Assembly (NCBI GenBank): GCA_964437095.1
Contig: CAYTFH010000002.1
Coordinates: forward strand, 14,627-78,626
From: an uncultured bacterium
GTDB taxonomy: Bacteria > Sysuimicrobiota > Sysuimicrobiia > Sysuimicrobiales > Sysuimicrobiaceae
DNA: 64,000 nucleotides
Direction of reading: 5' to 3'
This document shows positions 11,013 through 47,930 of this stretch, piece after piece; position 1 is the stretch's first letter, and each line of letters starts with the position of its first letter. The translations under genes were made by a program, and so were the position numbers. The notes under the pieces were generated by a model. The model worked only from the letters and a program-made list of their open reading frames with translations. It was not told the DNA's origin and did no database searches.

Positions 11013-11023
11013 GGTCCCTCCTC

Positions 11024-11045
11024 TGTCAAGTCGCAGGACTTGACG
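11024..11045. promoter_or_regulatory. HAIR-like dyad in the divergent region between the SDH-protease/hsp20 operon and the PRC/BON gene
   Basis: TGTCAAG-tcgcagga-CTTGACG uses the same half-site as the hspR operator. It lies just upstream of the protease RBS. Confidence 0.45.
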
Positions 11046-11103
11046 GACCCCGGAGGGCCCCGCACACTGGAGGCGGGAGGAGTATACCGCGGAGGGCGGG
11101 AGG

Positions 11104-24418: not shown

Positions 24419-24437
24419 GGCTCACCCCGCGTCACCA

Positions 24438-28868: not shown

Positions 28869-28948
28869 GCAAGGGCAGTTTACCGCCCTGCCGCGGTGGG
28901 CACGAGCCGACAGGTGTTGATCGACCCGGCCCCGAAGATAACGGAGTC

Positions 28949-30013: not shown

Positions 30014-30033
30014 GGCGAGGAGGCGGACAGCGG

Positions 30034-31140: not shown

Positions 31141-31188
31141 GCGCGGGCTCCCACGGACCCGCAACCTCCCGCGAGGGAGCGGCGGCGC

Positions 31189-32058
31189 CTACGAGGACGG
31201 CCCCTTGTCCTCCACGGCCCTCTGGGCCAGGTCGCCCAGGGGGGCCAGCAGGCGCGTGAACTCCATGGGGAACACGAACTTGGTGGCGGGGCTCTCGCCC
31301 AGGGCCTTGAGGGCCTCCAGGTACTGCAGGGTCATGGTCTTGCTGTCCACGTTGCGGGCCACGCTGAAGATCTTGTCCAGGGCCAGGGCGAACCCCTCCG
31401 CCCGCAGGATGGCCGCCTGACGGTCGCCCTCCGCCTTCAGGATGGCCGCCTGCTTCTCGCCCTCCGCCACCTTGATGGCCGCCTCGCGTTTCCCGTCCGC
31501 CTCCGTGACCACCGCCCGGCGGTTGCGCTCCGCGGACATCTGCCGCGTCATGGCTTCCTGGACCTCCCGCGGCGGAAGGATCTCCCGGATCTCCACCGCG
31601 GTGACCTTCACGCCCCACCGCTCCGTGACCTCGTCCAACTTCGCCCGGAGCACCTGGTTGATCTGCTCCCGGCGGGCCAGCACGTCGTCCAGGACGATGT
31701 CCCCGATCACCGCCCGCAGGGTGGTGGTAGCGATCCCCCGGGCCGCACCCGCGAAGTCCGCCACCTGGATCACGGAAGCCTCCGGCTCCACCACCTTCCA
31801 GTAGATGAGGAAGTCGATGTTGATGGGCGCGTTGTCCTTGGTGATGCAGGTCTGGGAAGGGATCTCCAGGAAGGCCTCCCGCAGGTCCACCCACACCGCC
31901 CGGTCCACGAAGGGGATGAGGAACACGATCCCGGGACCCCGCTGGCCGATGGAGCGGCCGAACCGGAACACCACCAGCCGCTGGTACTCGCGGACGATCT
32001 TGACCGCGGAGAGCAGCAGCCAAAGGCCGACGACTGCCGCGGCCAGCACGTAGGTCAT
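31189..32058 (-). CDS. SPFH/band-7 (stomatin-like) membrane protein
   Basis: N-terminal TM then VVFRFGRSIGQRGPGIVFLIPFVDR...ITKDNAPINIDFLIYWKV SPFH domain. Confidence 0.85.
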   Translation of the reverse strand: MTYVLAAAVVGLWLLLSAVKIVREYQRLVVFRFGRSIGQRGPGIVFLIPFVDRAVWVDLREAFLEIPSQTCITKDNAPINIDFLIYWKVVEPEASVIQVADFAGAARGIATTTLRAVIGDIVLDDVLARREQINQVLRAKLDEVTERWGVKVTAVEIREILPPREVQEAMTRQMSAERNRRAVVTEADGKREAAIKVAEGEKQAAILKAEGDRQAAILRAEGFALALDKIFSVARNVDSKTMTLQYLEALKALGESPATKFVFPMEFTRLLAPLGDLAQRAVEDKGPSS

Positions 32059-32147
32059 CCCTTCACCTCCCGGGCACGCCCGTGGGTCCATAACGTATCT
32101 TTGACCCGGGAGGTCGGGTTCCTGCTGGAGCCCTCAGGAGGTGGCGC

Positions 32148-33110
32148 GTGTCCCACGGTGCCGTGGCGGTGGACCTGGGAGGGAGCTGGATCCGGGCGGG
32201 CGTGGTGGGCCCGGACGGCGCGGTGCGGGAGGTGCTGCGCGTCCCCACCCCGCAGGCCGGGCCCGATGCGGTGGCGGAGGCCATCGCCCACCTGGTGCGG
32301 CAACTGGGCCCGGTGCCGCCGGGAAGGGTGGGGGTGGCAGTACCGGGGCCGCTCAGCGTGCGGGAGGGGGTGGTGTTCGAACCGCCCAACCTGCGGGGCT
32401 GGAGGGACGTACCCCTGCAGCGGATGCTGGAGGAGCGCTTGCGCCGGCCCGTGGTCCTGGAGAACGACGCCAACGCCGCGGCGTCGGGGGAGTGGTGGAA
32501 GGGTGCGGGTGCCGGGAGCCGCCACCTGGTCTACCTCACCGTGAGCACGGGGGTGGGAGGAGGCCTGGTGCTGGATGGGAAGCTGTACCGCGGGGCGAGC
32601 GACACCGCGGGGGAGATCGGCCACGTGGTGGTGGAGCCCGACGGCCCGTTGTGCTCATGCGGCCGGCCCGGGCACCTGGAGGCGGTGGCCTCCGGCCCCG
32701 CCATCGCCCGGTGGACGCTGGAACGCCTGCGGGAGGGCCGGGCTTCGGTGCTGGCGGGCAAGGAAGCGCTGTCCAGCCGGGACGTGGCGGAAGCCGCGGA
32801 GCGCGGCGACGGGCTGGCGCAGGAGGCTTTCCAGCGGGCGGGCCGGTACCTGGGCCTAGCCGTGGCAGGGCTACTGAACCTGCTGAACCCGGAGGTGGTG
32901 GTCATCGGCGGAGGGGTGGCCCGGGCGGGGCGGTGGCTGTTCGACCCGCTGCTGCAGGCGGCGCGGGAAGCCAGCTTCGACCGTCCGTGGAAGGCCGCCC
33001 GCATCGTGCCCGCGGCCCTGGGGGACCACGCGGGGCTGGTGGGGGCGGCGTACGTGGCCATGGAGCAGGAAGGAGGGATGCGCGGTGGACCGGGTCACGC
33101 TGAACACTGA
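32148..33110 (+). CDS. ROK family glucokinase
   Basis: AVDLGGSWIRAGVV, ENDANAAASGE and a CSCGRPGHLE zinc motif. GTG is 6 nt after AGGAGG. Confidence 0.85.
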   Translation: MSHGAVAVDLGGSWIRAGVVGPDGAVREVLRVPTPQAGPDAVAEAIAHLVRQLGPVPPGRVGVAVPGPLSVREGVVFEPPNLRGWRDVPLQRMLEERLRRPVVLENDANAAASGEWWKGAGAGSRHLVYLTVSTGVGGGLVLDGKLYRGASDTAGEIGHVVVEPDGPLCSCGRPGHLEAVASGPAIARWTLERLREGRASVLAGKEALSSRDVAEAAERGDGLAQEAFQRAGRYLGLAVAGLLNLLNPEVVVIGGGVARAGRWLFDPLLQAAREASFDRPWKAARIVPAALGDHAGLVGAAYVAMEQEGGMRGGPGHAEH

Positions 33111-33684
33111 AGGCGGCGTGCTGGAGCTGGTGCGCGCCGACATCACCCAGCAAGCCACCGACGCGGTGGTGAACGCCGCCAACCCCACCCTCATGGGCGG
33201 CGGAGGGGTGGACGGAGCCATCCACCGGGCTGGTGGTCCGGCCATTCTCGAGGAGTGCAAGCGCATCGTGCAGACCCTGCCGGGCCGGCGGCTGCCCCCC
33301 GGTGAAGCGGTGATCACCACCGGGGGAAACCTGCCCGCGCGCTACGTGATCCACACCGTGGGACCGGTGTGGCGGGGAGGCGGGGAGGGGGAGGACGAGG
33401 TTTTGGCTCGGGCGTACCGGTCCAGCCTGAAGCTCGCCCGGGAGCGGGGGTTGCGGTCCGTGGCCTTCCCGTCCATCAGCACGGGTGCGTACGGGTTCCC
33501 CGTGCCGCGCGCGGCCCGGGTGGCCCTTGGGGCGATCCTGGAGTTCTTGCGCGCGAACCCCGGGGCGTTCGACGTGGTACGGATGGTGCTCTGGAGTGAG
33601 GACGACTTCCGCGCCTACCGCCAGGCCCTGGAGGAGCTGCGGGCTACAGGAGGAGGCGGACGGGGTTCTCCAGCAAGCGCTTGA
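33085..33684 (+). CDS. macro domain protein (YmdB-like O-acetyl-ADP-ribose deacetylase)
   Basis: ADITQQATDAVVNAANPTLMGGGGVDGAIHRAGGP...VIHTVGPVW matches the YmdB/Af1521 macro family. It overlaps the glucokinase 3' end by 26 nt and E2 convergently. Confidence 0.8.
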   Translation: MDRVTLNTEGGVLELVRADITQQATDAVVNAANPTLMGGGGVDGAIHRAGGPAILEECKRIVQTLPGRRLPPGEAVITTGGNLPARYVIHTVGPVWRGGGEGEDEVLARAYRSSLKLARERGLRSVAFPSISTGAYGFPVPRAARVALGAILEFLRANPGAFDVVRMVLWSEDDFRAYRQALEELRATGGGGRGSPASA

Positions 33685-34834
33685 CCTCCACCAGGAACTG
33701 GGCCGCGCCCACGCCATCCGTAACCCGGTGGTCCGCGGACACCGTGAGCTGCAGCACCGGGCGCACCACCACCTGGCCGGACCGGACCACGGGCCGGTCC
33801 TGGGCCCGGCCCACGGCCAGGATGCCCGCCTGAGGGGGGTTGATGATGGCCACGAAGTTCACCACGTCGTACATGCCGAGGTTGCTCACGGAGAAGGTGG
33901 CGCCGGTGTACTCCTCCTGGCGCAGGCGCTTGGCGTGGGTCCCTTCGATCAACCGCCGCGCCTCCCGGGCCAGCTGCAGCAGGGGCAGACGGTCCGCGTC
34001 CCGCAGCACCGGCGCGATGAGCCCGTCGGGGGTGGCCACCATGATCCCCAAGTGGACCCGCCGGAACCGGCGCAGGGTTCCGTCGTCCAGCACGTGGGCG
34101 TTGAGGTCGGGGTGGTTGCGCAACGCCAGGGCGGTGGCCTTCAGCACCAGGTCGTTGACCGTCACCCGGCCTTCCTCTCCCAGAGCCTCCTGCAGCTGCT
34201 CCCGCAGCTCCAGCGCCCGAAAGAGGTCCACCTCCGCGGTGACGTAGAAGTGGGGCACGTGCTGCTTGCTGTGGGTCACCACCCGGGCGATGGCCTGGCG
34301 CATCCGGCTCGGGGGCACGTCCTCGTACTCTGCCTCCGCCTCCGCCCGAAGGGGCGCCGCCCGGCGCTCCAGGTAGGCCAGCACGTCCCGCTCCACGATG
34401 CGGCCTCCCGGGCCCGTGCCCCGGACCTGGGACAGGTCCACGCCGTGCTCGGAGGCGATGCGCCGCGCCAGCGGGGAAGCCTTGACCCGCGCGGGAGGCG
34501 CTTCCGGAGGCGGAGCCGGCGGCGACGGCTGCGCTGCGGGGGCGGCGGGCGCGGTGGGGGGTGCGGCCTCCGGGGCGGGAGCGGGAGCTTCCGCGGGCTG
34601 CCCGTCGATGTACGCGATCACCTGCCCCACGGGCACCACCTGGCCTTCTGGAACCGCGATGTGCAGGACCCCGGAGGCTTCCGCCTCCAGCTCCACGTTC
34701 ACCTTGTCCGTCTCGATCTCCACCAGCACCTCGCCCTTTTCCACGCGGTCGCCGTGGCGCTTGCGCCACGAGAGGACCTTGCCCTGCGTCATGGCGTCGC
34801 CCATCTTGGGCATGATGACCTCGGCCATGCCCAC
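33644..34834 (-). CDS. 2-oxoacid dehydrogenase E2 (dihydrolipoamide acetyltransferase)
   Basis: Lipoyl domain (EIETDKVNVELEAEASGVL), Pro/Ala linker, E3-binding domain, and catalytic domain with DHRVTDG. Confidence 0.9.
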   Translation of the reverse strand: MGMAEVIMPKMGDAMTQGKVLSWRKRHGDRVEKGEVLVEIETDKVNVELEAEASGVLHIAVPEGQVVPVGQVIAYIDGQPAEAPAPAPEAAPPTAPAAPAAQPSPPAPPPEAPPARVKASPLARRIASEHGVDLSQVRGTGPGGRIVERDVLAYLERRAAPLRAEAEAEYEDVPPSRMRQAIARVVTHSKQHVPHFYVTAEVDLFRALELREQLQEALGEEGRVTVNDLVLKATALALRNHPDLNAHVLDDGTLRRFRRVHLGIMVATPDGLIAPVLRDADRLPLLQLAREARRLIEGTHAKRLRQEEYTGATFSVSNLGMYDVVNFVAIINPPQAGILAVGRAQDRPVVRSGQVVVRPVLQLTVSADHRVTDGVGAAQFLVEVKRLLENPVRLLL

Positions 34835-34844
34835 CTCCCGTGCG

Positions 34845-35819
34845 CTACCGCAGCACCCGGCGGATGGCGCGCTGGATGCGCTCCTCGTCCGGGAAAGCCA
34901 GCTTCTCCAGGTTGCGGGCGTACGGCGCGGGCACGTCCTCCCCCGTGACCCGCTCCACGGGAGCGTCCAGGTCGTCGAAGCACCGCTCGTAGATCCCCGC
35001 GGCCACCTCCGCCGCGGCCCCGAACAACGGCCACTGCTCCTGCACCACCACCGCCCGGTGGGTCCGGCGCACCGACTCCGCCACCGTGTCCATGTCCAGG
35101 GGCCGGAGGCTGCGGAGGTCGATCACCTCGCACTCCACGCCCTCCCGGGCCAGGTCCTCCGCCACCGCCAGAGCCAGGTGCAGCATGCGGCTGTACGCCA
35201 CCACCGTCACGTCCCGGCCCCGCCGCACCACCGCGGCCCTGCCGAAGGGGACGGCGGACTCACCCTCCGGCACCGGCCCTTTGATCCCGTACAGGGCCGC
35301 GTGCTCCAGGAAGATCACCGGGTCGTCCGCCCGCATGGCGGTGCGCAGCAACCCCTTGGCGTCCGCGGGCGTGGCCGGGGCCACCACCCGCAGGCCGGGG
35401 AAGTGGCCGTAGAAGGACTCCAGGGATTGCGAGTGCTGCGCGGAGAGCTGAACCCCGGCGCCGTTGGGCCCGCGGATGACCAGGGGGACGGACACCTGGC
35501 CGCCGGAGAAGTAGCGCACCTTGGCGGCGTTCTGCAGAATCTGGTCCGCGGCGGGTAGGGAGAAGTTCCAGGTCATGACCTCCACCACGGGCCGTAGCCC
35601 CAGCATGGCCATGCCGATGGCCGCGCCGATGAACCCCAGCTCGGAGATGGGGGTGTCTACCACCCGCTTGGGGCCGTACCGCTCCAGGAGGCCCTCCGTG
35701 ACGCGGAAGGTGCCCTGGTAGACCCCGATGTCCTCTCCCAGGAGCAACACCCGGGGGTCGCGGTCCATCTCCTCCACCAGGGTGGACCGCAGGGCTTCGC
35801 GGTAGGTCATCTCCGGCAC
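34845..35819 (-). CDS. pyruvate/2-oxoacid dehydrogenase E1 component beta subunit
   Basis: Transketolase-like pyrimidine-binding and C-terminal domains; 324 aa. Confidence 0.9.
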   Translation of the reverse strand: MPEMTYREALRSTLVEEMDRDPRVLLLGEDIGVYQGTFRVTEGLLERYGPKRVVDTPISELGFIGAAIGMAMLGLRPVVEVMTWNFSLPAADQILQNAAKVRYFSGGQVSVPLVIRGPNGAGVQLSAQHSQSLESFYGHFPGLRVVAPATPADAKGLLRTAMRADDPVIFLEHAALYGIKGPVPEGESAVPFGRAAVVRRGRDVTVVAYSRMLHLALAVAEDLAREGVECEVIDLRSLRPLDMDTVAESVRRTHRAVVVQEQWPLFGAAAEVAAGIYERCFDDLDAPVERVTGEDVPAPYARNLEKLAFPDEERIQRAIRRVLR

Positions 35820-35823
35820 GGCC

Positions 35824-36819
35824 TCACCCTCCGTACACGTCCCGGTACAGCTCCTCGGGTGGCGGTTCCGGGCTGGACTCCGCGAAGGCCACCGCCTCCT
35901 GCACGCGCCCCTGCGCCCAGACCTCCACCTCCGCCACCCGGGCGTCGTCCAGGACTCCGGCAGCCCTGAGCCGCCGCTCCAGCAGGAGGATGGGGTCCCG
36001 CTGCCGCCACCGTTCCACCTCCTGCCGGTCCCGGTAGGGCTGGAACAGGTCCGCGGCCCCGTGCCCGGAGAAGCGGTAGCTGAGGGTTTCCACCGCGTAC
36101 GGGCGGCCCGTGCGCCGGACCTGCTCCACCACCCGCCGCGCTACCTCGTACACCTCCACCACGTCCATGCCGTCGCACCGCTCGTGGGGGATGTCGTACG
36201 CGTCGAACCGTCGGTGCAGCTCCGGTACCGCGGAGGCCCGTTCCACGGAGGTCCCCATGCCGTACTGGTTGTTCTCCACCACGAACACCACCGGACACAT
36301 GCCCTCCCGGCCCCACAGGCCTGCCAGGTTGGCCGCCTCGTGAAGGGCTCCGCTGTTCATGGCGCCGTCGCCGAAGAAACACAGGCACACCCGGTCCGTG
36401 CCCTGGTACCGGAGGGCGTACGCCGCGCCCACCGCCAGCGGCATGTGGCCGCCCACGATCCCGTAGCCCCCGTAGTTGCCCCGGGCGGTGTCGAACAGGT
36501 GCATGGACCCCCCCTTGCCCTTGCACGTGCCCGTGACCTTGCCGTACAGCTCCGCCATCACCGCGCCCGGGTCGGTGCCCCGGACCAGGGTGTGCACGTG
36601 GTCCCGGTAGGACACGAAGAACACGTCGTCCGGTCGGGCGGCGGACAGAAAGCCCAACGGGACCGCCTCCTGCCCGATGGCCACGTGCAGGTAGCCGCCG
36701 ATCTTCCCCCGCCGGAAGCTGCGTTCCGTCTGCTCCTCGAACCGCCGGCAGAACAGCAGCGTCCGGTACCACTCCAGCAGGGTGTCCACCGGCACCGCCA
36801 CCGGCCGCGCGTGCTGCAT
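35824..36819 (-). CDS. pyruvate/2-oxoacid dehydrogenase E1 component alpha subunit
   Basis: ThDP-binding GDGAMNSG...ENNQYG motif. ATG is 4 nt after GAGGAGGA; the alternative GTG at 36840 would overlap accC. Confidence 0.85.
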   Translation of the reverse strand: MQHARPVAVPVDTLLEWYRTLLFCRRFEEQTERSFRRGKIGGYLHVAIGQEAVPLGFLSAARPDDVFFVSYRDHVHTLVRGTDPGAVMAELYGKVTGTCKGKGGSMHLFDTARGNYGGYGIVGGHMPLAVGAAYALRYQGTDRVCLCFFGDGAMNSGALHEAANLAGLWGREGMCPVVFVVENNQYGMGTSVERASAVPELHRRFDAYDIPHERCDGMDVVEVYEVARRVVEQVRRTGRPYAVETLSYRFSGHGAADLFQPYRDRQEVERWRQRDPILLLERRLRAAGVLDDARVAEVEVWAQGRVQEAVAFAESSPEPPPEELYRDVYGG

Positions 36820-36836
36820 GGGTCCTCCTCGTTCCG

Positions 36837-38201
36837 TCACGACCCGCGGCCCAGGGCGCTCAGGTCCACGCGCCGCTGGACGAAGTTGGTGTACACCTCC
36901 CCGCGCCGGAAGAAGGCGTTGTCCAGGATGGCGCGGTGCAGGGGCAGGGTGGTGCGCACACCCGTGATCTCGAACTCCCTCAGGGCCCGCTCCATCCTGG
37001 CGATGGCCTCCTGCCGGTCCCGCCCCCAGGCCACCACCTTTGCCACCAGTGAATCATAGTACGGCGGGATGGTGTAGCCCGCGTACACGTGGGTGTCCAC
37101 CCGGATCCCGGGCCCGCCCGGAGGGATGAAGGACACCACCCGGCCCGGGGAGGGACGGAAGTCGTGGGCGGGGTCCTCCGCGTTGATCCGGCACTCCAGG
37201 GCGTGCCCGCGGAACGCCACGTCCTTTTGCGAGAAGCGCAGCCGCTCGCCCGCGGCGATGCGGATCTGCTCGGCCACCACGTCCAGGCCCGTGATGGCCT
37301 CCGTCACGGGGTGTTCCACCTGGATGCGGGTGTTCATCTCGAGGAAGTAGAAGTTCTCCTGGCGGTCCACCAGGAACTCCACGGTGCCCGCGTTCACGTA
37401 CCCGATGGCCTGCACCAGGCGCAGTGCTGCCCGGTGCAGCTGGGCCCGCAGGCGGCCGGACAGGCCCGGGGCAGGGGCTTCCTCCAGCAGCTTCTGGTGG
37501 CGCCGCTGGATGGAGCAGTCCCGCTCGCCTAAGTGCACGGCGTTGCCGCGGCTGTCCGCCAGGACCTGGACTTCCACGTGGCGGGGTTCTTCCAGGTACT
37601 TCTCCAGGTACACCTCGCCGCTCCCGAAGGCAGCCTCCGCCTCCCGCGATGCGGTCTGCAGGGCGCGGCTCAGGTCCTCCCGGTTGTGCACCACCCGCAT
37701 CCCCCGGCCCCCGCCGCCCGCGGAGGCCTTCACCAGTAAGGGGTAGCCGAGCCGGTCGGCCAGACGCAGGGCCTCCCGCTCGTCCCGCACGGGCCCTGGG
37801 CTGCCAGGCACCACGGGCACGCCGGCCCGTTGGGCGATCTCCCGTGCCCGGGCCTTGTTGCCCATGGCTTCGATGGCCTCCGGGGGCGGCCCGATGAAGG
37901 TGATCTTGGCGTCGCGGCAGATCTCCGCGAACCGGGGGTCCTCCGCCAGGAAGCCGTAGCCGGGGTGGATGGCGTCCACGCCCAGCAGCTCCACGGTGCT
38001 CAGGATGTTGGGGATGTTCAGGTAGCTGTCCGCGGCGGGGGGCGGGCCGATGCAGAAGGCCTCGTCGGCCAGCCGCACGTGCAGGCTGTCCCGGTCCGCC
38101 TCGGAATACACCGCCACGGTGCGGATGCCCAGCTCCCGGCAGGTGCGGATGACCCGCACCGCGATCTCGCCCCGGTTGGCCACGAGAACCTTCCTGAACA
38201 T
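36837..38201 (-). CDS. accC: acetyl-CoA carboxylase biotin carboxylase subunit
   Basis: MFRKVLVANRGEIAVRVIR with ATP-grasp and biotin carboxylase C-terminal domains. Confidence 0.95.
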   Translation of the reverse strand: MFRKVLVANRGEIAVRVIRTCRELGIRTVAVYSEADRDSLHVRLADEAFCIGPPPAADSYLNIPNILSTVELLGVDAIHPGYGFLAEDPRFAEICRDAKITFIGPPPEAIEAMGNKARAREIAQRAGVPVVPGSPGPVRDEREALRLADRLGYPLLVKASAGGGGRGMRVVHNREDLSRALQTASREAEAAFGSGEVYLEKYLEEPRHVEVQVLADSRGNAVHLGERDCSIQRRHQKLLEEAPAPGLSGRLRAQLHRAALRLVQAIGYVNAGTVEFLVDRQENFYFLEMNTRIQVEHPVTEAITGLDVVAEQIRIAAGERLRFSQKDVAFRGHALECRINAEDPAHDFRPSPGRVVSFIPPGGPGIRVDTHVYAGYTIPPYYDSLVAKVVAWGRDRQEAIARMERALREFEITGVRTTLPLHRAILDNAFFRRGEVYTNFVQRRVDLSALGRGS

Positions 38202-38211
38202 TTCCGAAGGG

Positions 38212-38676
38212 CTACCCGTGGGGGTCGATGAGGAACAGGGGCTGCCCGTACTCCACCGGGGCGCCGTTCTCCGCCAGCACCCGCACCACCCGCCCGGAGA
38301 CCTCGGCCTGGATCTCGTTGAACATCTTCATGGCCTCGATGATGCACAGGGTCTGCCCTGCCTCCACCCGGTCGCCCTCCTGCACGAAGGGTGGCTGGTC
38401 GGGGCCCGGGGCCCGGTAGAAGGTCCCCACCATGGGCGCGGTCACGGGGACCCAGTGGGGGCTGGGCGCGTCGGCCGCCGGCGCCGCGGGGGCGGCGGCG
38501 GGCGCGGGGGCAGGCGCGGGCGCCGTGAGAGCAGGGGGCGGGGCGCTGCGGGGCGCCTTGCGGATGGCTACCCGCAGGTGGCCCGCCTCCACCTCCAGTT
38601 CCGTGATGTCCGCCTCGCTGGCGATGCGCACCAGCTCGCGGATCTCGTCGAAGTTCAGGTGCTGCTCGCCGGACAT
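38212..38676 (-). CDS. accB: acetyl-CoA carboxylase biotin carboxyl carrier protein
   Basis: Ala/Pro linker and the EAMKMFNEI biotinylation motif. Confidence 0.9.
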   Translation of the reverse strand: MSGEQHLNFDEIRELVRIASEADITELEVEAGHLRVAIRKAPRSAPPPALTAPAPAPAPAAAPAAPAADAPSPHWVPVTAPMVGTFYRAPGPDQPPFVQEGDRVEAGQTLCIIEAMKMFNEIQAEVSGRVVRVLAENGAPVEYGQPLFLIDPHG

Positions 38677-38696
38677 GCCACCTCCTCGGCCGGGGG

Positions 38697-39683
38697 CTAT
38701 GCGGGCGCTGCGGGGCCTGGTTCCACCCCGAACCGGCCCATGCGCCGGTACTTATCGTACCGGCGGCGCCGCCGCTCCTCGGGAGGAAGATCCCGCACCT
38801 CCCGCAGGTGGCGGCTCAGGGCCTCGTGCAGGGCCGCCGCCGCCCGGTCGGGGTCCAAGTGCGCGCCGCCCAGGGGCTCGGGCACCACCTCGTCCACCAC
38901 GCCCAGCTCCAGCAGGTCCCGAGCGGTGAGCTTGAGGGCCGAGGCGGCCTCCTCCTTCCGGTCGGAATCCCGCCACAGGATGGCGGCACACCCCTCCGGC
39001 GGAATGACAGAGTAGATGGCGTACTGCATCATGAGCACCCGGTCCCCCACGGCCACGGCCAGGGCCCCGCCGCTGCCGCCTTCGCCCGTGATGGCCACCA
39101 CCACGGGGCACCGCAGCTCCAGCATGGTGAGGATGCTGCGGGCGATGGCCTCCGCCTGCCCGCGCTGTTCCGCCTCCACGCCCGGGTACGCCGCGGGGGT
39201 GTCCACCAGGGAGATCACGGGCAGCCCGAGTTTGTCCGCCAGGCGCATGATCCGCATGGCCTTGCGGTACCCCTCAGGGTTGGGCATGCCCCACCGGCGG
39301 TGCACGTTCTCCCGGGTGTCCTTACCCTTGTGGTGGCCCACCACCGCCACCGGCTGCCCGTCCAGGCGGGCGAGGCCGCAGAACATGGCGGGGTCGTCGC
39401 CGAACAGGCGGTCCCCGTGCAGCTCCACCACGTCCGTGAACACCTTCTCCAGGTAGTCGCCCAGCTTCGGCCGCTGCGGGTGGCGGGCGGCCTGCACCAC
39501 CTGCCAGGCCGTGGGCTCGTGCCACAGGCCCGCCCGCACGGCCTCGATCCGGGCCCGCAGGGCCTGCACCCGCGACGACAGGTCGGGCACCTGCTCGGCC
39601 GGGGTGGCCTGCAGCTGTGCCAGCTGCTCTTCGAGCTCCTGCAGCTCCCGCTCCTGTTGGGCGCGGTCAGGAGGGCTGGTCAA
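38697..39683 (-). CDS. accA: acetyl-CoA carboxylase carboxyltransferase alpha subunit
   Basis: Carboxyltransferase alpha family (GEGGSGGALA). Confidence 0.9.
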   Translation of the reverse strand: MTSPPDRAQQERELQELEEQLAQLQATPAEQVPDLSSRVQALRARIEAVRAGLWHEPTAWQVVQAARHPQRPKLGDYLEKVFTDVVELHGDRLFGDDPAMFCGLARLDGQPVAVVGHHKGKDTRENVHRRWGMPNPEGYRKAMRIMRLADKLGLPVISLVDTPAAYPGVEAEQRGQAEAIARSILTMLELRCPVVVAITGEGGSGGALAVAVGDRVLMMQYAIYSVIPPEGCAAILWRDSDRKEEAASALKLTARDLLELGVVDEVVPEPLGGAHLDPDRAAAALHEALSRHLREVRDLPPEERRRRRYDKYRRMGRFGVEPGPAAPA

Positions 39684-40575
39684 GGACCACCTCCCCGCGA
39701 TCCCCTCCCATGAGCCGCAGCAGGCGGGCCACGGTGGCCTTGAGCTCGGACCGGGGCACGATGAGGTCCACGAAGCCGCACCGCAGGAGGAACTCCGCGG
39801 TCTGGAACCCTTCCGGGAGCTTCTGGCGGATGGTCTGCCCGATGACCCGTGCCCCCGCGAACCCGATGAGGGCGCCCGGCTCCGCCACGTGCACGTCCCC
39901 CAGCATGGCGAAGGAGGCGGTGACCCCGCCCGTGGTGGGGTCGCACAGCACGGACACGAAGGGTAGCCCCGCGGCGTGCAGGCGGCTCGCCGCGGCCACG
40001 GTCTTGGCCAGCTGCATCAGGGACAGCACGCCCTCCTGCATGCGGGCACCGCCGCTGGCGCTGCAGGTCACCACGGGCAGCCGCAACGCCACCGCCCGCT
40101 CGAACATCCGGGCCACCTTCTCCCCCACCACGGAGCCCATGCTGCCACCCAGGAAGTCGAAGTCCAGCACCCCCACCGCGGCCTCCACGCCCGCGATGCG
40201 GCCACGGCCCGTGAGCACCGCCTCCCGCCGGCCCGTCCTCTGGACCGCCTGGCGGTAGCGCTCCGCGTACTCCGGGAACTGCAAGGAATCCAGGGAGACC
40301 AGGTCCGCGTCCCACTCCTCGAAGGTGCCCTCGTCCACCAGCAACTGCAAACGTTCGGGGCCGCTGAGCCGGTGGTGGTAGCCGCACTTGGGGCAGACCT
40401 TGAGGTTGCGTTCCAGCTCCTTGCGGTACACCAGCTGGGCGCACCGCGGGCACTTGGCCCACAGCCCCGCGGGGATGTCCCGCCGCTGTATGGACTGGTA
40501 CTTGGGCCGGCGCAGCCAGTTGAGCACGGTTTCCGGTTTTCGGGTCCTGCGCGTCGGAATCCTGCCCGGCCCCAC
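39667..40575 (-). CDS. accD: acetyl-CoA carboxylase carboxyltransferase beta subunit
   Basis: N-terminal CPRC...CPKC zinc ribbon and a carboxyltransferase beta domain. Confidence 0.9.
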   Translation of the reverse strand: MGPGRIPTRRTRKPETVLNWLRRPKYQSIQRRDIPAGLWAKCPRCAQLVYRKELERNLKVCPKCGYHHRLSGPERLQLLVDEGTFEEWDADLVSLDSLQFPEYAERYRQAVQRTGRREAVLTGRGRIAGVEAAVGVLDFDFLGGSMGSVVGEKVARMFERAVALRLPVVTCSASGGARMQEGVLSLMQLAKTVAAASRLHAAGLPFVSVLCDPTTGGVTASFAMLGDVHVAEPGALIGFAGARVIGQTIRQKLPEGFQTAEFLLRCGFVDLIVPRSELKATVARLLRLMGGDRGEVVLDQPS

Positions 40576-40646: not shown

Positions 40647-41720
40647 ATGCGCGGGAGGGCGTGCCTTTTGCTGCTGGCCCTGGCGGGTCTCGCGGGAGTG
40701 GGACCCCGCGCGGGCGCGCAGACGTCGGCAGGGGACCTGGTGGAAGCGTACCGCTGGCGGCTGGAGAACGCCGCGGGCGGCCTGGTGGAGGGCAGCGAGG
40801 ACGGAGGCCGCACGTGGAGGACCTTGGGGCGCGTGGTGCGGCCCGCGGTGGCTACGGCCGTGGGCTTCACCGCCAGCCGCTGGGGACGGCCGGGGACCGT
40901 GGTGGCCACGGGAGCCAACGCGGTGCACGTGAAGGTGGCCGACACGCCCGACGGCCGCGGGGTCATCTTCACCCTGTGGCCCCGGGGAGCGCCGTGGTCG
41001 CCGCACGTGATCCTCACGGACATCCCGGGTGGACGCGGGATCTTCGGCGGGCGGTTCAGCGCCTTCGTGGGCAACCCCGTCCTGGTGGAAGGACCCGCGG
41101 GGACGTCGCCGGTGGCGGGCTGGACCCCGGTGGTGGGAGCGCGCCTGGTGGTGGTGGTCCAGCGGCCGGCCCGCACGTCTGTGGAGCTAGAGCTCGAGAA
41201 CCGGTTCGGAGGTCTGGTGCGGGCGCGGTTTACGGACGGATCGGAGGAGCTGGTGGCGGTGGTGCTGCGGCCCGTGGCGGGCGTGGGGCGGTTCGAGGGG
41301 ACGCAGTACGTGGGCATCGGGCGGGTGCGGGCCAACCACCCGGGCGTCATCGACGTGTCCACCTCGCCCGTGGGGCAGGTGGGCGGGTTCCAGATCATCC
41401 CCCGGGACCACGCCCACAGCCCGGAGCTGGTGGGCGCGGTGCTGGGGACCCAGTGGATGGTGGTGGGACCCGTGAACCCCCTGGACCCCTCCCCGCAGGG
41501 AACGGCGCCCCTGTTCTCGGCCTTCATCGCTCCCCGCTACGACCCCGACGACCTCTCCGACGAGGAGTGGCAGCGGCGAGTGAGCGAGCGGTACCTGGTG
41601 ATGTGCCGGGTGGACGCCGGGCCCTGGCAGCTGTTCCCTCCCCTGGTGGGTCGGCGGGACGACGCCCTGCTGCGGGTGACCCACATCAAGATCCTCCTGC
41701 CCCTGTGGTCGTGGCCGTGA
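40647..41720 (+). CDS. hypothetical secreted protein (signal peptide, no recognised domain)
   Basis: ORF with ATG after GGAAGGGAGGTGGAAGG and a cleavable signal LLLLALAGLAGVGPRAGAQ. Confidence 0.45.
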   Translation: MRGRACLLLLALAGLAGVGPRAGAQTSAGDLVEAYRWRLENAAGGLVEGSEDGGRTWRTLGRVVRPAVATAVGFTASRWGRPGTVVATGANAVHVKVADTPDGRGVIFTLWPRGAPWSPHVILTDIPGGRGIFGGRFSAFVGNPVLVEGPAGTSPVAGWTPVVGARLVVVVQRPARTSVELELENRFGGLVRARFTDGSEELVAVVLRPVAGVGRFEGTQYVGIGRVRANHPGVIDVSTSPVGQVGGFQIIPRDHAHSPELVGAVLGTQWMVVGPVNPLDPSPQGTAPLFSAFIAPRYDPDDLSDEEWQRRVSERYLVMCRVDAGPWQLFPPLVGRRDDALLRVTHIKILLPLWSWP

Positions 41721-41791: not shown

Positions 41792-42943
41792 ATGTCGACC
41801 CCGTACCGTGTGTACACGCCGCCTCCGGAGAGCCCTCTGCCTCCGGCGCCCCGGGGTCCGGGCGCCGGCGTGTGGGTGGCGGTGGTGGTGCTGTCCCTGC
41901 TGGCCGGCGCTGCCGGAGGGTACCTGGCGCCGCGCGGCGGCCGTGCGTCCCCTCCCGCGGTGACGTCCACCCAGGCTCCGCCCGCGGTAAGTGGCACGGT
42001 GCGGGTGGTGTCGGAGGAGTCCGTGGTGATCCAGGTGGTGGAGAAGGTGCGGCCCGCGGTGGTGAACATCCAGACGCGCGGGTTCGCGCCGGACTTCTTC
42101 GGGCAGCTGTTCCCGCAGGAGGGAGCAGGGTCCGGGGTCATCGTGAGCGAGGACGGGTACATCCTGACCAACAACCACGTGATCCGCAACGCCACCCAGA
42201 TCCGGGTGCGGCTGCTGGACGGTACGGAGCTGGAGGGCCGGGTGGTGGGCACCGACCCACCCTCGGACCTGGCGGTGATCAAGGTGGACCCCAAGGGCCG
42301 GAAGCTGCCCGCGGCGGAGCTGGGCGATTCCCACGCCCTCAAGGTGGGCCAGCTGGCCATCGCCATCGGCAACCCCTTCGGCCTGGGCAGCACCGTGACC
42401 GTGGGGGTGGTGAGCGCCCTCAACCGGTCCATCCAGGTGCCGGGGTTCGTCATCGACAACCTGATCCAGACGGACGCGGCCATCAACCCCGGGAACAGCG
42501 GCGGCGCCCTGGTGAACAGCGCGGGGCAGGTGATCGGCATCAACACCGCCATCATCCCGCAGGCCCAGGGGATCGGGTTCGCCATCCCCTCCTCGGTGGC
42601 CCGCACGGTGATGGAGCAGCTCATCCGCACGGGCACCGTGCAGCGCCCCTTCTTCGGGGTGGCGTACGTGGAGGTGACCCGGGAGCTGGCGCAGGCGTAC
42701 GGCCTGGCGGCGGACCACGGGGTGCTGGTGCAGCAGGTGGTCCCGGGCAGCGGGGCGGAGAAGGCCGGGATCAAGCCCCTGGACATCATCGTGGAGATGC
42801 AGGGCAAGCGCATCGAGGGCGCCAGCGACTTCCAGCGGGAGATCCTCCAGCGCCGGGTGGGGGACGTGGTGACCGTCACCGTGGTGCGGGGAGGGCAGCG
42901 GCTGCAGCTTCAGGTCCAGCTGGGCCCGCGGCCGCCCCAGTGA
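41792..42943 (+). CDS. htrA: HtrA/DegP family serine protease with PDZ domain
   Basis: Catalytic triad context (TNNHVIRNA, DLAVIKV, GNSGGALVN), N-terminal TM and a C-terminal PDZ domain. Confidence 0.9.
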   Translation: MSTPYRVYTPPPESPLPPAPRGPGAGVWVAVVVLSLLAGAAGGYLAPRGGRASPPAVTSTQAPPAVSGTVRVVSEESVVIQVVEKVRPAVVNIQTRGFAPDFFGQLFPQEGAGSGVIVSEDGYILTNNHVIRNATQIRVRLLDGTELEGRVVGTDPPSDLAVIKVDPKGRKLPAAELGDSHALKVGQLAIAIGNPFGLGSTVTVGVVSALNRSIQVPGFVIDNLIQTDAAINPGNSGGALVNSAGQVIGINTAIIPQAQGIGFAIPSSVARTVMEQLIRTGTVQRPFFGVAYVEVTRELAQAYGLAADHGVLVQQVVPGSGAEKAGIKPLDIIVEMQGKRIEGASDFQREILQRRVGDVVTVTVVRGGQRLQLQVQLGPRPPQ

Positions 42944-42973
42944 GGCGTCGCCACCGGGTCCGTCGAACGTCGG

Positions 42974-44314
42974 TCAGCAGCTCCTGGGGCGGCCCTCCCA
43001 CTCCGCCACCCACGCCCGCAGGAGCTCTTCGAGGGTGGGGGAGCTCACCTCCTCCAGGTCGTACGTGACCTTGGCCGCGGGCTTGTCCAGCCGCAGGAGG
43101 CGGCGCAGGTCCACGGGGGTGCCCACCACCACCGCGTCCGCTTCCGCCCTCCGGAGGGTCTGCTCCAGGTCCCGCAGCTGCGGCCCGCCGTACCCCATGG
43201 CGGGTACGACCTGGGTGAGGTGCGGGTAGTCGCGGAACACCTGCTGCAGCGTGCCCACCGCGTAGGGCCTGGGGTCCACCACCACCGCCCCGAGCCGGCG
43301 GGCGGCCAGCAGCCCCGCGCCGTACGGCATCTCCCCGTGGGTCACCGTGGGGCCGTCCTCCACCACCACCACCCGGCGGCCCGCCACCAGCTCCGGCCGG
43401 TCCAGGCGGATGGGGGACGCAGCTTCCACCACCCCCGCCTGGGGGTTCGCAGCGCGGACGTTGCGCTCGACCTCTTCCACCGCCTCCCGGGGCGCGGTGT
43501 CCACCTTGTTGACCACCACCACGTGGGCCATGCGCAGGTTGGTCTCCCCAGGGTGGTAGCGGAGCTCGTGACCGGGCCGGTGCGGGTCCGCCACCACCAC
43601 GAACCGATCGGGCCACACGAAGGGGAAGTCGTTGTTGCCCCCGTCCCACACCAGCACCTCCGCCTCGGCTTCCGCCTGCCGGAGGACCTGTTGGTAGTCC
43701 ACCCCCGCGTACACCACGATCCCCAGGGCCACGTGGGGCTCGAACTCCTCCCGCTCCTCCACGGTCAACCCGGCCCGGTCCAGGTCCTCCCAGGTGGCGA
43801 AGCGCTGCACCGCCTGGGAAGCCAGGTCGCCGTACGCCATGGGGTGGCGGACCACCACCACCCGCTTGCCCCACGTTCGCAACAGCCGCGCCAGCTTGCG
43901 GGCGGTCTGGCTCTTGCCGCTTCCGGTCCGCACCGCTCCCACCGCCACCACGGGAACCCCGACCCGCAGCATGGTGTCCTGGGGGCCCAGCAGACGCACG
44001 CTGGCGCCCGCGGCCAGAGCCCGGGAAGCCACGTGCATCACGTGTTCGTGGGACACGTCGCTGTAGCTGAACACCACCTCCCGCACGCGCTCCCGGCGGA
44101 TCCACGCCTCCATCTCCTCCTCGGGCACGATGGGGATGCCGTCCGGGTAGCCCGGTCCGGCCAGCTCCGGCGGGTAGCGGCGGCCCGCCAGGTTCGGGAT
44201 CTGGGTGGCGGTGAACGCCACCACCCGGTAGTCCGCGCGCCCGCGGAAGTACACGTTGAAGTTGTGGAAGTCGCGGCCGCCCGCTCCCAGGATGAGGACG
44301 GGGACGGGCTCCAT
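42974..44314 (-). CDS. cyclic 2,3-diphosphoglycerate synthetase-like P-loop protein
   Basis: 447 aa with N-terminal VLILGAGGRDFHNFN and an internal Walker A (AVRTGSGKSQT), recalled as characteristic of the archaeal cDPG synthetase family. The assignment is from memory. ATG is 5 nt after the argS stop. Confidence 0.45.
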   Translation of the reverse strand: MEPVPVLILGAGGRDFHNFNVYFRGRADYRVVAFTATQIPNLAGRRYPPELAGPGYPDGIPIVPEEEMEAWIRRERVREVVFSYSDVSHEHVMHVASRALAAGASVRLLGPQDTMLRVGVPVVAVGAVRTGSGKSQTARKLARLLRTWGKRVVVVRHPMAYGDLASQAVQRFATWEDLDRAGLTVEEREEFEPHVALGIVVYAGVDYQQVLRQAEAEAEVLVWDGGNNDFPFVWPDRFVVVADPHRPGHELRYHPGETNLRMAHVVVVNKVDTAPREAVEEVERNVRAANPQAGVVEAASPIRLDRPELVAGRRVVVVEDGPTVTHGEMPYGAGLLAARRLGAVVVDPRPYAVGTLQQVFRDYPHLTQVVPAMGYGGPQLRDLEQTLRRAEADAVVVGTPVDLRRLLRLDKPAAKVTYDLEEVSSPTLEELLRAWVAEWEGRPRSC

Positions 44315-44319
44315 GGGGG

Positions 44320-46161
44320 TCACATCACCTCGGGAGCGGGCACGCCCAGCAGCGCTAGGCCGGTGCGCAGGACGTCCCGCACCTGCCGCACCAGGGCCAG
44401 CCGCGCGCCCCGCAGGCCCGGCGGAGCCTGGAGCACGGGGGTGGCAGGGCTGCCGTCGGGCTGGCGGGCGTTGTAGTACGCGTTCCACGCGGCCGCCAGG
44501 TCCAGGAGGTACTGGGCCAGCACGTGGGGGGTGCGCTGCGCCGCGGCGGTGGCCACCGCGTCGGGGAACTCCAGCAGGGCCCGCGCCACCGGCCGCTCGT
44601 ACTCCGTGGCCCGGGTGAAGTCCGCGTCCTCCTCCCCCAGCCCGGCTTCCTGCGCGCGGCGGAGGATGGAGGCGGCCCGGGCGTGGGCGTACTGCACGTA
44701 CGGGCCGCTGTCGCCCTCGAAGGACAGGGCCTGCTCCCACCGGAAGTCGATCTGGCGCCGGGGCTCGGTCTTGACCATGGCGAACCGCACCGCGCCGATG
44801 CCCACCTGCTCCGCGGCCGCTTCGGGGTCGGGGTGGTTCGGGTTCTTCTCCGCCACCACCGCCCGGGCCCGACGGCGGGCTTCGTCCAAGACCTCGTCCA
44901 CGGACACGGTGTGTCCGCGACGGCCCGAGATGCGGCGCCCCTCCAGGGTGACCGTCTCGTAGGCCAGGTGGTGGGCGCCGTCGGCCAGGTCCGGACGGCC
45001 GGCTACCGCCAACGCCGCCCGGACCACCTTCTGGGGGTAGCTCTGGGTGGCGTCGATGACGTTGATGGTCTGGTCGCAGCCTGCGAACCGCAACTTCCGG
45101 TCGCCCTCGGGGTGGGAGGTGTACAGCACGCGGCCGGAGGGCTGGCGGGTGAAGGGGCGGAAGGCCAGGCCCTGCAGCAGGCCCATCTTCCAGAACTGGA
45201 AGGCGATGTCCTTGGCGGGGTAGGTGGCGGTGCCGTCGGAGCGGACCAGCACCAGGTAGGGGTCCTCCAGCCCCTGCACGAAGGCGGAGGTGTCCATCAC
45301 CAGCGCCCCCGCGTACTTCCCGTCCCGGGGCCGCTGCACGTACGGGGTGTGCTCCAGGAGGGCCAGGGCCCCCTGCAGCAGCCCCTCCCGCACCAGGTCG
45401 GACTCCCACACCAGGACGTCGTACTCCGCACCCAGCCGCCACATGGTCTCCAACTGGGCCCGCAGGATGCGGTCCACCTCTTCCCGCAGCTCCCCCGCTT
45501 CCAACCGGTGCAGGACCCGGCGGACGCCCTCCTCGATCTCCTGCCGACGGTGGGGGTCCTCCATCTCCCGGTGCAGCCGGACGTACGCCTCGCCCACCCA
45601 GTGGTCGTACTTGACGGCGCCGTCGTAGCGCAGGCCGTACCGCTCCAGGGCGAACAGGGACTCCGCCACCTGACGGCCGGTGTCGTCGATGTAGTTGAGG
45701 ACCCGGACCTCGTAGCCCGCGTAGGAGAGGATGCGGCTGACCGCGTCCCCCAGGGCCACGTTGCGCAGGTGTCCCACGTGCAGCTCCTTGTTGGGGTTCA
45801 CGGAGGTGTGCTCCACCAGCACGCACCGGCCCACGGGCGCTGGCGGCTGCAACGGCCGGGTGGCGGCCCGAAGCAGCTCCGCGGGGTCCACGGTGAAGTT
45901 CACGTACCCGCCCACCGCCTGCGCGCTGCGGACGCCCGGGGGGAGGGGGACGAGGGAGGCCAGCTCCTGCGCCACGGCTTGAGGGGGGCGGCGCAAGATG
46001 CGCGCCAGGGTGAAGGCCACCGGACTGCCGTAGTCGCCGGGCCGGTCCGGAGGTGTGGGCTGCACCACCACCTCCACCGGCTCTTCCACGCCCAGCAGCG
46101 CCAGGGCCTGCTCCGCGGCCCGTCGGAGTTCCGCTTTGAGGTCCCGCACGTCCCGGACCAT
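44320..46161 (-). CDS. argS: arginine--tRNA ligase
   Basis: HIGH-like HVGHLRN, and anticodon-binding and catalytic domains. The long upstream extension of the ORF in the track is unlikely to be real. Confidence 0.9.
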   Translation of the reverse strand: MVRDVRDLKAELRRAAEQALALLGVEEPVEVVVQPTPPDRPGDYGSPVAFTLARILRRPPQAVAQELASLVPLPPGVRSAQAVGGYVNFTVDPAELLRAATRPLQPPAPVGRCVLVEHTSVNPNKELHVGHLRNVALGDAVSRILSYAGYEVRVLNYIDDTGRQVAESLFALERYGLRYDGAVKYDHWVGEAYVRLHREMEDPHRRQEIEEGVRRVLHRLEAGELREEVDRILRAQLETMWRLGAEYDVLVWESDLVREGLLQGALALLEHTPYVQRPRDGKYAGALVMDTSAFVQGLEDPYLVLVRSDGTATYPAKDIAFQFWKMGLLQGLAFRPFTRQPSGRVLYTSHPEGDRKLRFAGCDQTINVIDATQSYPQKVVRAALAVAGRPDLADGAHHLAYETVTLEGRRISGRRGHTVSVDEVLDEARRRARAVVAEKNPNHPDPEAAAEQVGIGAVRFAMVKTEPRRQIDFRWEQALSFEGDSGPYVQYAHARAASILRRAQEAGLGEEDADFTRATEYERPVARALLEFPDAVATAAAQRTPHVLAQYLLDLAAAWNAYYNARQPDGSPATPVLQAPPGLRGARLALVRQVRDVLRTGLALLGVPAPEVM

Positions 46162-46546
46162 GGTAGCAGAACGGCCCGGGACAGGCCCCCGGTGGTATAA
46201 TGCGGCCGTGACCGCCGCACGGGAGCTGCTGGACCGCGTGGTGCGCTCGGTGAGGGAGGGTGCCACCTCCGTGGCGCGGGAGTCCGAGCGCCTCGCGCGG
46301 GTGGCGCGGGTCCGCCTGGAGATCGGGACCCTGCAGGCCCGGCTGGAGGACCGGTACACGGACATCGGTCGGGTGGTGCACGCCCGTTACCGAGCGGGTA
46401 CTTTGGCGGACCCGGAGCTGGCGGCGCTGTGCCAGCCCGCGGAAGCCCTGGAAGCGGAGATCCGCAGGCTGGAGCAGGAGCTGGCGGACCTGCGCAGCGC
46501 GGAAGGCGGCTCCGGTCCGGAGGGCCGGGGCGGCTCCGGGGGCTAG
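46160..46546 (+). CDS. hypothetical coiled-coil protein
   Basis: ORF only; heptad-like LEAEIRRLEQELADLRS. Start uncertain. Its ATG shares the CCATGG palindrome with the argS start on the other strand. Confidence 0.3.
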   Translation: MVAERPGTGPRWYNAAVTAARELLDRVVRSVREGATSVARESERLARVARVRLEIGTLQARLEDRYTDIGRVVHARYRAGTLADPELAALCQPAEALEAEIRRLEQELADLRSAEGGSGPEGRGGSGG

Positions 46547-46684
46547 GGTTGTCCACCACGCCGCCGCGGACGCCGACCGCCACCGTCGCGGGGGTTCCCG
46601 GGGTGGTCTAGCCCTTCCCGTAGATCCAGGAATCGGTGGCACACCCGTGAGAGCGTTCCCGAGCCGAGGAGGTCTGCCCGGGAT

Positions 46685-47930
46685 GTGGTGGAGGGGCCGA
46701 GTGCTGGCGGTGCTGCTGGTGGTGGGGCTGGTGGTACCCGCCTTCGGGCAGATCTTCACGGACACCGCGGGCCGGCCCGAGCAGCGGACGCTGGAGAAGC
46801 TGGCGGCCAAGGGCGTGTTCCCCATCCCGGAGGACCGGCGGTTCCAACCGGAGGCGCGCATCACGCGCCTGGACTTCTTCGTGGCCTTGGCCCGGGCGGT
46901 GGGGCTGCGGGAAGGCGGCGGAACGCTGCCCGAGTACCGGGACGCCGCGGAGATCCCCACGAGCGCCCGGGGGCTGCTGGCCGCCCTGGCGAGCGCGGGC
47001 ACCGTGAACCAGCGCAGGGCGGTGCGCAAGGTCCAAGAGTGGGAGGTGATCCTGGAGACGGACAAGGGGACCTACGGGCCGGGGGAGGAGATCGGCCTGA
47101 CCCTGTCCCTGAAGAACACCTCCGGACGAGTGGCCGAGGTGGAGTTCGCCACCTCCCAGCGCTACGACTTCGTGATCCGCAGTCCGGCGGGGGAAGAGGT
47201 GGCCCGGTGGTCGCTGGGCCAGCAGTTCACCACCCAGGGCCTCAAGCTCACGGTGCAGCCCAACCAGCAGGTGGTGATTGGCGACACCAAGTGGAAGCAG
47301 CTGGACCAGAACGACCGCCCCGTGCCCCCCGGCCGCTACGAGCTGGTGGGCGTGGTCACCGCCCGCCCGCAGCCCATGACGGTGACGGTGTTCTTCACCA
47401 AGGGGTTCGTGACCAGCTTCCCCGACAACACCTTCCGGCCCCGCGCCCCCATCACCCGCGCGGAGGTGGCGGAGCTGGCGGCGCGGGTGAGCGGGCTGGA
47501 GCAGGAGGCGCTGGCCAAACGGGGGAACCCCATCCCCGCCCAGGACGCCCAGGACGTGAGGCCCGAACACCGGGGGTACGTGGCCCTGGCCCTGGAGCGC
47601 AAGTTCCTCGTCACCACCGAAGGGCGGGTTCGGCCCAACGACCCCGCCAGCCGCTTGGACGCGGCCTTGGCCCTGGACGGAGTGATGAACGTGCTGGGCC
47701 GGTACAACTTCGTGCGGGGGCGGTTCCGGGCCATCCAGCCGGGCAACCCGGCCATCCTGTCCGTGGCGGACGGGCCCACCCTCCGCAACTTCCGGCTGGG
47801 GCGGGTGGTGGCGGTGTACCGCAACGACCGGCCCGCGCAACTGCAGGACTTGAAGCCCAACGACGAATTGGCCATGCTGTTGCTGGGGGACGTGGGAGAC
47901 GTGACGTACATCGAGGCCAAGGGGCCTTAA
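46685..47930 (+). CDS. SLH-domain cell-surface protein with central BsuPI-like protease-inhibitor domain
   Basis: Signal peptide, then two SLH-like motifs ([46 protein letters not shown]), one at each end. Central region resembles the BsuPI intracellular proteinase inhibitor fold. Confidence 0.55.

Follow-up and report, generated by a model that had tools for sequence, protein, structure and literature searches.

A putative ArcE-family arginine synthetase gene directly behind argS in an uncultured bacterium, and its separation from cyclic 2,3-diphosphoglycerate synthetase

The argS-arcE gene pair

The DNA studied here is a stretch of 64,000 nucleotides from an uncultured bacterium, referred to in the following as the window. 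Its minus strand carries, between positions 42974 and 46161, two tightly spaced genes: argS, and directly behind it a gene that, judging from its sequence relationships, very probably encodes an arginine synthetase (ATP-forming arginine deiminase) of the ArcE family, a two-domain P-loop enzyme. A sequence-only reading of the same DNA had proposed that this second gene codes for a cyclic 2,3-diphosphoglycerate synthetase (cDPGS). The locus is built as follows (aa, amino acids).

44320..46161, minus strand: argS, encoding a 613-aa arginyl-tRNA synthetase, directly upstream of arcE on the same strand (basis: Pfam, public gene call)
44315..44331, minus strand: argS-arcE junction, with a Shine-Dalgarno-like GAGGTGA (44331-44325), the argS TGA stop codon (44322-44320) and a CCCCC spacer (44319-44315) (basis: sequence reading)
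42974..44314, minus strand, stop codon included: arcE, encoding a putative 446-aa arginine synthetase/ATP-forming arginine deiminase family protein (basis: translation, identity to PF0547 and to its T. peptonophilus orthologue)

The arcE reading frame extends from the ATG at 44314-44312 to the TGA stop codon at 42976-42974 and comprises 447 codons including the stop, corresponding to a protein of 446 aa; the protein length of 447 aa given in the sequence-only reading had counted the stop codon. The N-terminus of the protein is MEPVPVLILGAGGRDFHNFN, and the stretch quoted earlier as its start is indeed present, but that quotation began at residue 6. A single cysteine occurs in the entire protein, as its last residue. 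On a public contig that codes for an identical protein, genes called independently likewise yield proteins of 613 and 446 aa, in agreement with our own reading of the open reading frame (ORF) that follows argS. More than 8000 ArcE-family homologues were scored, many of them at E < 1e-180, so that arcE can be regarded, from homology, as a real gene far beyond chance.

The window ArgS protein possesses the Pfam domains Arg_tRNA_synt_N, tRNA-synt_1d and DALR_1, and hence represents a canonical arginyl-tRNA synthetase. The TGA codon of argS and the ATG codon of arcE are separated by exactly five nucleotides (CCCCC), as had been noted before, and the Shine-Dalgarno-like sequence of arcE falls inside the last codons of argS. 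An Rfam scan of the whole window returned no element, with neither a T-box nor any other leader ahead of argS, and no consensus promoter or terminator was called around argS-arcE when the region 42500-46900 was scanned. In the segment upstream of argS (46162-46207), a lone AT-rich ATTATA sequence lies about 35 nucleotides before the argS ATG in otherwise GC-rich surroundings, and the argS start codon lacks a preceding Shine-Dalgarno sequence.

The six-frame translation also contains an ORF of 1363 aa (42974-47065), which the sequence-only reading had rightly dismissed. This ORF is the arcE frame left open upstream through argS, while argS itself is read in another frame (44320 - 42974 = 1346; 1346 mod 3 = 2). 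At the 72% GC of this DNA, so long an open frame across argS is to be expected as an artefact.

Assignment of the window protein to the ArcE family

The sole enzyme of the ArcE family that has been characterised, TK2200 from Thermococcus kodakarensis, was shown in 2024 to catalyse the reaction Arg + ADP + Pi <-> Cit + NH3 + ATP (Michimori et al., PMC11032458). Its Mg2+ dependence, its specificity for L-arginine and for free ammonia, and its in-vivo roles are described in the same study (PMC11032458). The window protein is 62% identical, across 98% of its length, to a protein of Pyrococcus furiosus (P0077) whose gene is located directly beside hypC-hypD both in the genome sequence AE009950 and in strain COM1. 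Because the P. furiosus genes arcE, hypC and hypD are listed as PF0547, PF0548 and PF0549, respectively (Supplementary Table 1 of the 2026 follow-up study, PMC13260591), this adjacency identifies P0077 as PF0547. The T. peptonophilus orthologue (P0423) shares 61% identity and 80% positives with the window protein over 436 aa.

This relationship is not confined to a part of the protein. In the family alignment (A1), columns are on average 71% identical between bacterial and archaeal members, the N-terminal domain included. At 143 columns, at least 95% of the 86 other family members carry the same residue; the window protein has this consensus residue in 137 of them, and its six deviations are all conservative. 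It likewise contains every one of the motifs GAxGRDFHNFN, YSDVSHExVMH, RTGxGKS, RHPMxY, TxEEREExEP and WDGGNND, as well as DPxRxGHE, PGExNxR, NKxD, EDGPTxTHGxM and DPRPxA, by which we recognise the family. At least 591 relatives are present among species-representative genomes, and hundreds of species of mesophilic bacteria carry a family member. ArcE is thus a known, recently described family to which the window protein adds a bacterial member.

The names that databases give to members of this family alternate between "GTPase" and "cyclic 2,3-diphosphoglycerate synthase". The latter name is attached in RefSeq and UniRef even to the Thermococcales ArcE orthologues from Thermococcus, Pyrococcus and Palaeococcus (P0308-P0316, P0419-P0432). 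A literature search for COG2403 returned no papers.

Relationship to cyclic 2,3-diphosphoglycerate synthetase

A genuine cDPGS would make the thermoprotectant cyclic 2,3-diphosphoglycerate (cDPG) from 2,3-diphosphoglycerate (2,3-DPG) and ATP. NCBI and UniRef call many ArcE-family members by this name, and there is a true kinship behind it. cDPGS was the sole family matched when the PDB sequences were searched, either by phmmer with the single window sequence (E 1.9e-4 for 9SXB; E 0.13 for 8ORK/8ORU) or with a 20-sequence ArcE-family profile (E 2e-8 and 1.2e-5), each match covering about 110 of the 446 residues. cDPGS is also the top structural match of the window protein, whose structure was predicted as a monomer; the predicted fold is that of a SIMIBI-class P-loop protein and resembles CTP synthetase and dethiobiotin synthetase as well. 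For a comparison of the two families as a whole, we aligned 20 full-length true cDPGS sequences (A2), which were collected by an exhaustive HMMER search since a word-indexed search of proteins with a cDPGS fragment of 115 aa had yielded fragments only. The A2 profile finds 8ORK with an E-value of 3.7e-190, and profile-profile comparison of A1 with A2 by hhalign gave a probability of homology of 98.1% (E 9e-14; 342 aligned columns; 18% identity). On this profile evidence, ArcE and cDPGS are homologous proteins of shared architecture that have deeply diverged.

The match to the cDPGS family put forward in the sequence-only reading therefore has substance as homology, but the relationship is remote: the sequence match in the PDB searches is limited to the above-mentioned 110 or so residues, the identity between the window protein and cDPGS is 13-18%, and a pairwise BLASTP comparison with a cDPGS representative is not significant (E 0.66). 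All seven signature motifs that emerge from A2 (DGEHYPP, GTGKRVGKT, MGRGGP, HAASD, GCRRCGGG, EGSGA and ELKAA) were looked for in the window protein, and none is present. This includes the residues that bind the substrate. In the 8ORU complex, Lys145 and Arg146 contact 2,3-DPG; the cDPGS loop GTGKRVGKT in which they reside aligns with AVRTGSGKS of the window protein, and the Lys-Arg pair is replaced there by the invariant Thr130-Gly131.

The distribution of the two families leads to the same conclusion. Thermococcus paralvinellae encodes a cDPGS-family protein (P0447) alongside an ArcE-family protein (P0328), and T. kodakarensis harbors TK1039, annotated as cDPGS, separately from TK2200. Since both kinds of protein coexist in the same organisms, ArcE and cDPGS are distinct, functionally separate paralogues. 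The true cDPGS-family paralogue in Thermococcus is P0447, with about 435 aa similar in length to the protein in PDB 9SXB. Furthermore, cDPG has been reported only from hyperthermophilic methanogens, whereas the ArcE family is spread over the hundreds of mesophilic bacterial species mentioned above, and its characterised member is an arginine synthetase. No 2-phosphoglycerate kinase was found among the window ORFs scanned, a scan restricted to the window and not exhaustive even there.

Collectively, these data leave hardly any room for a cDPG-forming activity of the window protein. The function proposed in the sequence-only reading is contradicted by an identity of 61-62% to ArcE as against 13-18% to cDPGS and by the absence of the substrate-binding and signature residues of the latter, and the additional cDPG-based thermoprotectant route that had been built upon it falls with the assignment of the protein to the ArcE family. 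By profile as well as by orthology, the protein belongs to a P-loop family other than cDPGS, an outcome that the sequence-only reading itself had named as speaking against its proposal. Its proposal of cDPGS mirrors propagated database annotation, because this label sits on many database entries for the ArcE family.

Sequence motifs and nucleotide use

An internal Walker A motif had been recognised previously and was readily found again as the P-loop at residues 126 to 135. Three elements related to nucleotide binding can be distinguished in the window protein.

43910..43939, minus strand: P-loop (Walker A), GAVRTGSGKS, residues 126-135; family-wide invariant residues R129, T130, G131, G133, K134 and S135
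43628..43648, minus strand: WDGGNND, residues 223-229, a Walker-B-like acidic strand end; invariant columns in A1, aligning with cDPGS EGSGA
43499..43510, minus strand: NKVD, residues 269-272, an NKxD-type motif; N269 and K270 never vary, D272 is at least 90% conserved, cDPGS having ITLAD/TMCE at this position

NKxD is the classical guanine-specificity element of GTPases. Its invariance (N269-K270-V-D272), together with the "GTPase" label of many database entries, might suggest that the protein is not a metabolic enzyme at all and functions instead as a regulatory GTPase or metallochaperone of the G3E type, similar to CobW, HypB or UreG. A Pfam cobW match just below the threshold (20.5 bits versus a cut-off of 20.7) and the location of the Pyrococcus gene next to hypC-hypD could be read in the same way. 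However, the cobW match spans only 58 residues, and no cysteine is found among the 143 conserved positions, which leaves the family devoid of a CxCC or CPH metal-binding motif. The extreme conservation over the full length of the protein is typical of enzymes acting on small-molecule substrates. TK2200 is catalytically active with ADP/ATP; it prefers ADP, while GDP supports only 8% of its activity, about 12-fold less (PMC11032458). The P. furiosus arcE gene (PF0547) and hypC-hypD lie side by side in divergent orientation (8429-11347 of loci L001 and L002). We rejected this neighbourhood as evidence for a hydrogenase-related GTPase since the arginine synthetase pathway supplies carbamoyl phosphate for the maturation of [NiFe]-hydrogenases (PMC13260591), and such ArcE-derived carbamoyl phosphate accounts for the hyp linkage. 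We consequently regard a G3E-type function as very improbable. The NKxD motif taken as a proof of GTP use was likewise rejected, given the ADP preference of TK2200.

Genomic context of arcE

We surveyed the neighbours of arcE in 90 loci (80 loci from species-representative genomes and 10 contigs, including two genomes of P. furiosus and three contigs from the window lineage) by clustering all ORFs within 6 kb on either side without prior labels. The commonest neighbour families encode carbamate kinase (23 of the 90 loci), ornithine carbamoyltransferase (OTCase; 19 loci) and ArgS (14 loci). In the lineage of the window protein (at least 86% identity), argS and arcE sit side by side in every case with hardly any space between them, with a 5-nucleotide gap in the window, a 4-nucleotide overlap in contigs resembling that of bacterium HR31 (L007) and a 4-nucleotide gap in a JGI contig (L091). 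Among the next lineages (70-74% identity), some have arcE followed by, or overlapping with, an OTCase gene, and in others arcE stands alone.

The OTCase gene was found directly after arcE in L009 (6001-8285), L010 (1349-3706) and L093 (5001-7288; 4-nucleotide overlap). This pair is embedded in a housekeeping block with the order rplM-rpsI-(methyltransferase)-arcE-OTCase-cdaA-glmM-...-glmS, and no carbamate kinase gene is located nearby. An arrangement of arcE with OTCase but without carbamate kinase in these sister lineages suggests an arginine-forming pair.

The argS->arcE tandem recurs in ten Anaerolineales genomes with gaps of 29-562 nucleotides. In a neighbour-joining tree (without bootstrap support), its carriers form a clade separate from the window/HR31 lineage, and their ArgS proteins are only 28% identical to that of the window; it is therefore probable that the two genes came together on at least two occasions. 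Operons of the type arcE->arcC(->arcB) dominate in Acidobacteriota, Aminicenantes, Actinomycetes, Bacteroidota and other phyla, and these were never seen together with argS among the 90 loci. The main text of the study on TK2200 makes no mention of argS or tRNA (PMC11032458). The argS-arcE operon fits a role in arginine metabolism, and its recurrence is a modest new element, an additional and independent genomic link of the family to arginine.

One may ask whether the ArcE fold has drifted in the window lineage towards a different ureido or guanidino compound as substrate, or towards a different nucleotide such as GTP/GDP. The assay of one archaeal member alone, the guanine-type NKxD motif and the lack of arcB and arcC in the window give some weight to this idea. 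Yet the nearly invariant residues have been kept in the window protein, apart from the six conservative exchanges, and no obvious split into subfamilies is apparent at 55-68% identity. Moreover, the linkage to argS in the window and that to OTCase in the nearest lineages point specifically to arginine and citrulline. A drift in substrate or nucleotide thus appears unlikely.

Several observations weigh against our assignment of the window protein as an arginine synthetase. A Pfam scan of the protein gave nothing above threshold and an NCBIfam scan gave nothing; neither collection holds a model for the ArcE family, so that the assignment is based on orthology and has no curated profile behind it. 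The only characterised ArcE enzyme is archaeal and about 61% identical to the window protein, and the link to TK2200 runs through PF0547 and other Thermococcales orthologues, not through the TK2200 sequence itself. The invariance of NKxD, set against the ADP preference of TK2200, leaves nucleotide use uncertain in the window protein. Finally, tblastn searches with OTCase and carbamate kinase gave no matches in the 64-kb window, and none of the 49 window ORFs scanned besides argS is an arginine-metabolism gene. Because OTCase and carbamate kinase are missing from the window, the window itself gives no evidence of a complete three-gene arginine synthetase pathway in the source organism; the three pathway genes of T. 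kodakarensis (TK2200, TK0871 and TK2158) are dispersed as well (PMC11032458).

Proposed reaction and its direction

By analogy to its orthologue TK2200, the window protein would interconvert arginine and citrulline in a reaction close to equilibrium (L-arginine + ADP + Pi <-> L-citrulline + NH3 + ATP). The P-loop RTGSGKS, with Lys134 and Ser135, and the acidic end of the WDGGNND strand would hold the nucleotide and Mg2+. In the direction of arginine formation, the ureido oxygen of citrulline is probably first phosphorylated by ATP, after which ammonia would displace the phosphate. We propose this route because CTP synthetase, a structural relative, performs a formally analogous reaction, in which a carbonyl oxygen is activated by ATP before the phosphate is displaced by ammonia. 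In the reverse direction, phosphate would attack the guanidino carbon, ammonia would leave, and the phosphoryl group would pass to ADP. As an ArcE enzyme, the window protein would be expected to assemble into a tetramer that binds ADP cooperatively.

In the cell, a bicistronic argS-arcE message would let arcE expression track the level of arginyl-tRNA synthetase. The enzyme could operate in either of two directions; it may supply arginine from citrulline, or it may bleed arginine to citrulline and thereby yield ATP, ornithine and carbamoyl phosphate. Tentatively, and with appreciably less confidence than we place in the family assignment, we raise the possibility, rather less likely than not, that ArcE serves in the window lineage as a terminal, one-step arginine-forming enzyme (from citrulline, NH3 and ATP) that replaces or supplements ArgG/ArgH and is co-expressed with ArgS. 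Such an anabolic use is conceivable since the argS->arcE tandem occurs in two clades, arcE-OTCase pairs exist, and the presumably catabolic arcE-arcC-arcB operons were never seen with argS in the loci surveyed. For arginine synthetase, a physiological use in anabolism has so far been raised only as a possibility.

Other genes in the window

The genes located at 23174-33107 form a cluster that fits the "glucosylglycerate genes" mentioned in the sequence-only reading.

23174-24421, minus strand: glgC-like nucleotidyltransferase
25289-27187, minus strand: MGH1-like glycoside hydrolase
27048-28946, minus strand: universal-stress-protein domain fused to a GT2 glycosyltransferase, an unusual fusion
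28844-30010, plus strand: bacterial-type phosphoglucose isomerase
32094-33107, plus strand: ROK kinase

Two housekeeping clusters on the minus strand (33647-40575) are positioned downstream of the argS-arcE block, and the many long antisense ORFs around them are high-GC artefacts. Two genes whose products have no Pfam match flank the block, and these keep their position beside argS-arcE-htrA in all three related contigs.

33647-37053, minus strand: E1-alpha, E1-beta and E2 of a 2-oxoacid dehydrogenase
36840-40575, minus strand: complete accD-accA-accB-accC acetyl-CoA carboxylase operon
40647-41717, plus strand: 357-aa protein without Pfam match, between accD and htrA
46208-46546, plus strand: 112-aa protein without Pfam match, divergent from argS with 46 nucleotides between the start codons

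Significance

The assignment of the window gene to arcE corrects a widely propagated misannotation, under which ArcE orthologues are labelled in RefSeq and UniRef as "cyclic 2,3-diphosphoglycerate synthase" or "GTPase". If accepted, the cDPGS label would wrongly credit the source bacterium and hundreds of others with a thermoprotectant pathway of the methanogen type. The gene points instead to the route via arginine synthetase, known only since 2024, which would provide either one extra ATP per arginine degraded or a one-step synthesis of arginine from citrulline and free ammonia. The recurrent argS-arcE operon offers a concrete handle on the question whether any organism uses ArcE biosynthetically.

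Comparison with known systems

The closest known systems are TK2200 and PF0547, of which the window protein is a collinear, full-length orthologue with 61-62% identity, about 446-449 aa and the same invariant motifs. The predicted fold is the same, with LpxK as a structural relative, and the association with arcB and arcC is seen in relatives of the window protein. The window protein differs in being bacterial, from an uncultured, thermophile-like lineage of 72% GC related to "bacterium HR31", which NCBI taxonomy places among unclassified Bacteria and on which a literature search returned no papers; its gene, known here from sequence, stands away from arcB/arcC in an operon with argS.

Among the other P-loop proteins, cDPGS (Methanothermus fervidus, PDB 8ORK/8ORU; 9SXB) is set apart at 13-18% identity by a Lys-Arg pair in its P-loop where Thr-Gly is found here, by TMCE/TLAD where the window protein has NKVD, and by another substrate and product. 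The tetraacyldisaccharide 4'-kinase LpxK (Aquifex aeolicus, 4EHX/4EHY) is a structural relative of ArcE, but a membrane-associated lipid kinase with 18% identity that has neither the N-terminal domain nor the motifs of ArcE. The amidoligase domain of CTP synthetase and dethiobiotin synthetase, both of the SIMIBI class, show no specific sequence similarity, and their likeness in mechanism to ArcE is inferred. ArcA and ArgG/ArgH interconvert the same pair of compounds as ArcE, arginine and citrulline. However, ArcA has an unrelated fold and acts hydrolytically without conserving energy, whereas ArgG/ArgH, also of unrelated folds, rely on aspartate and an AMP-forming chemistry.

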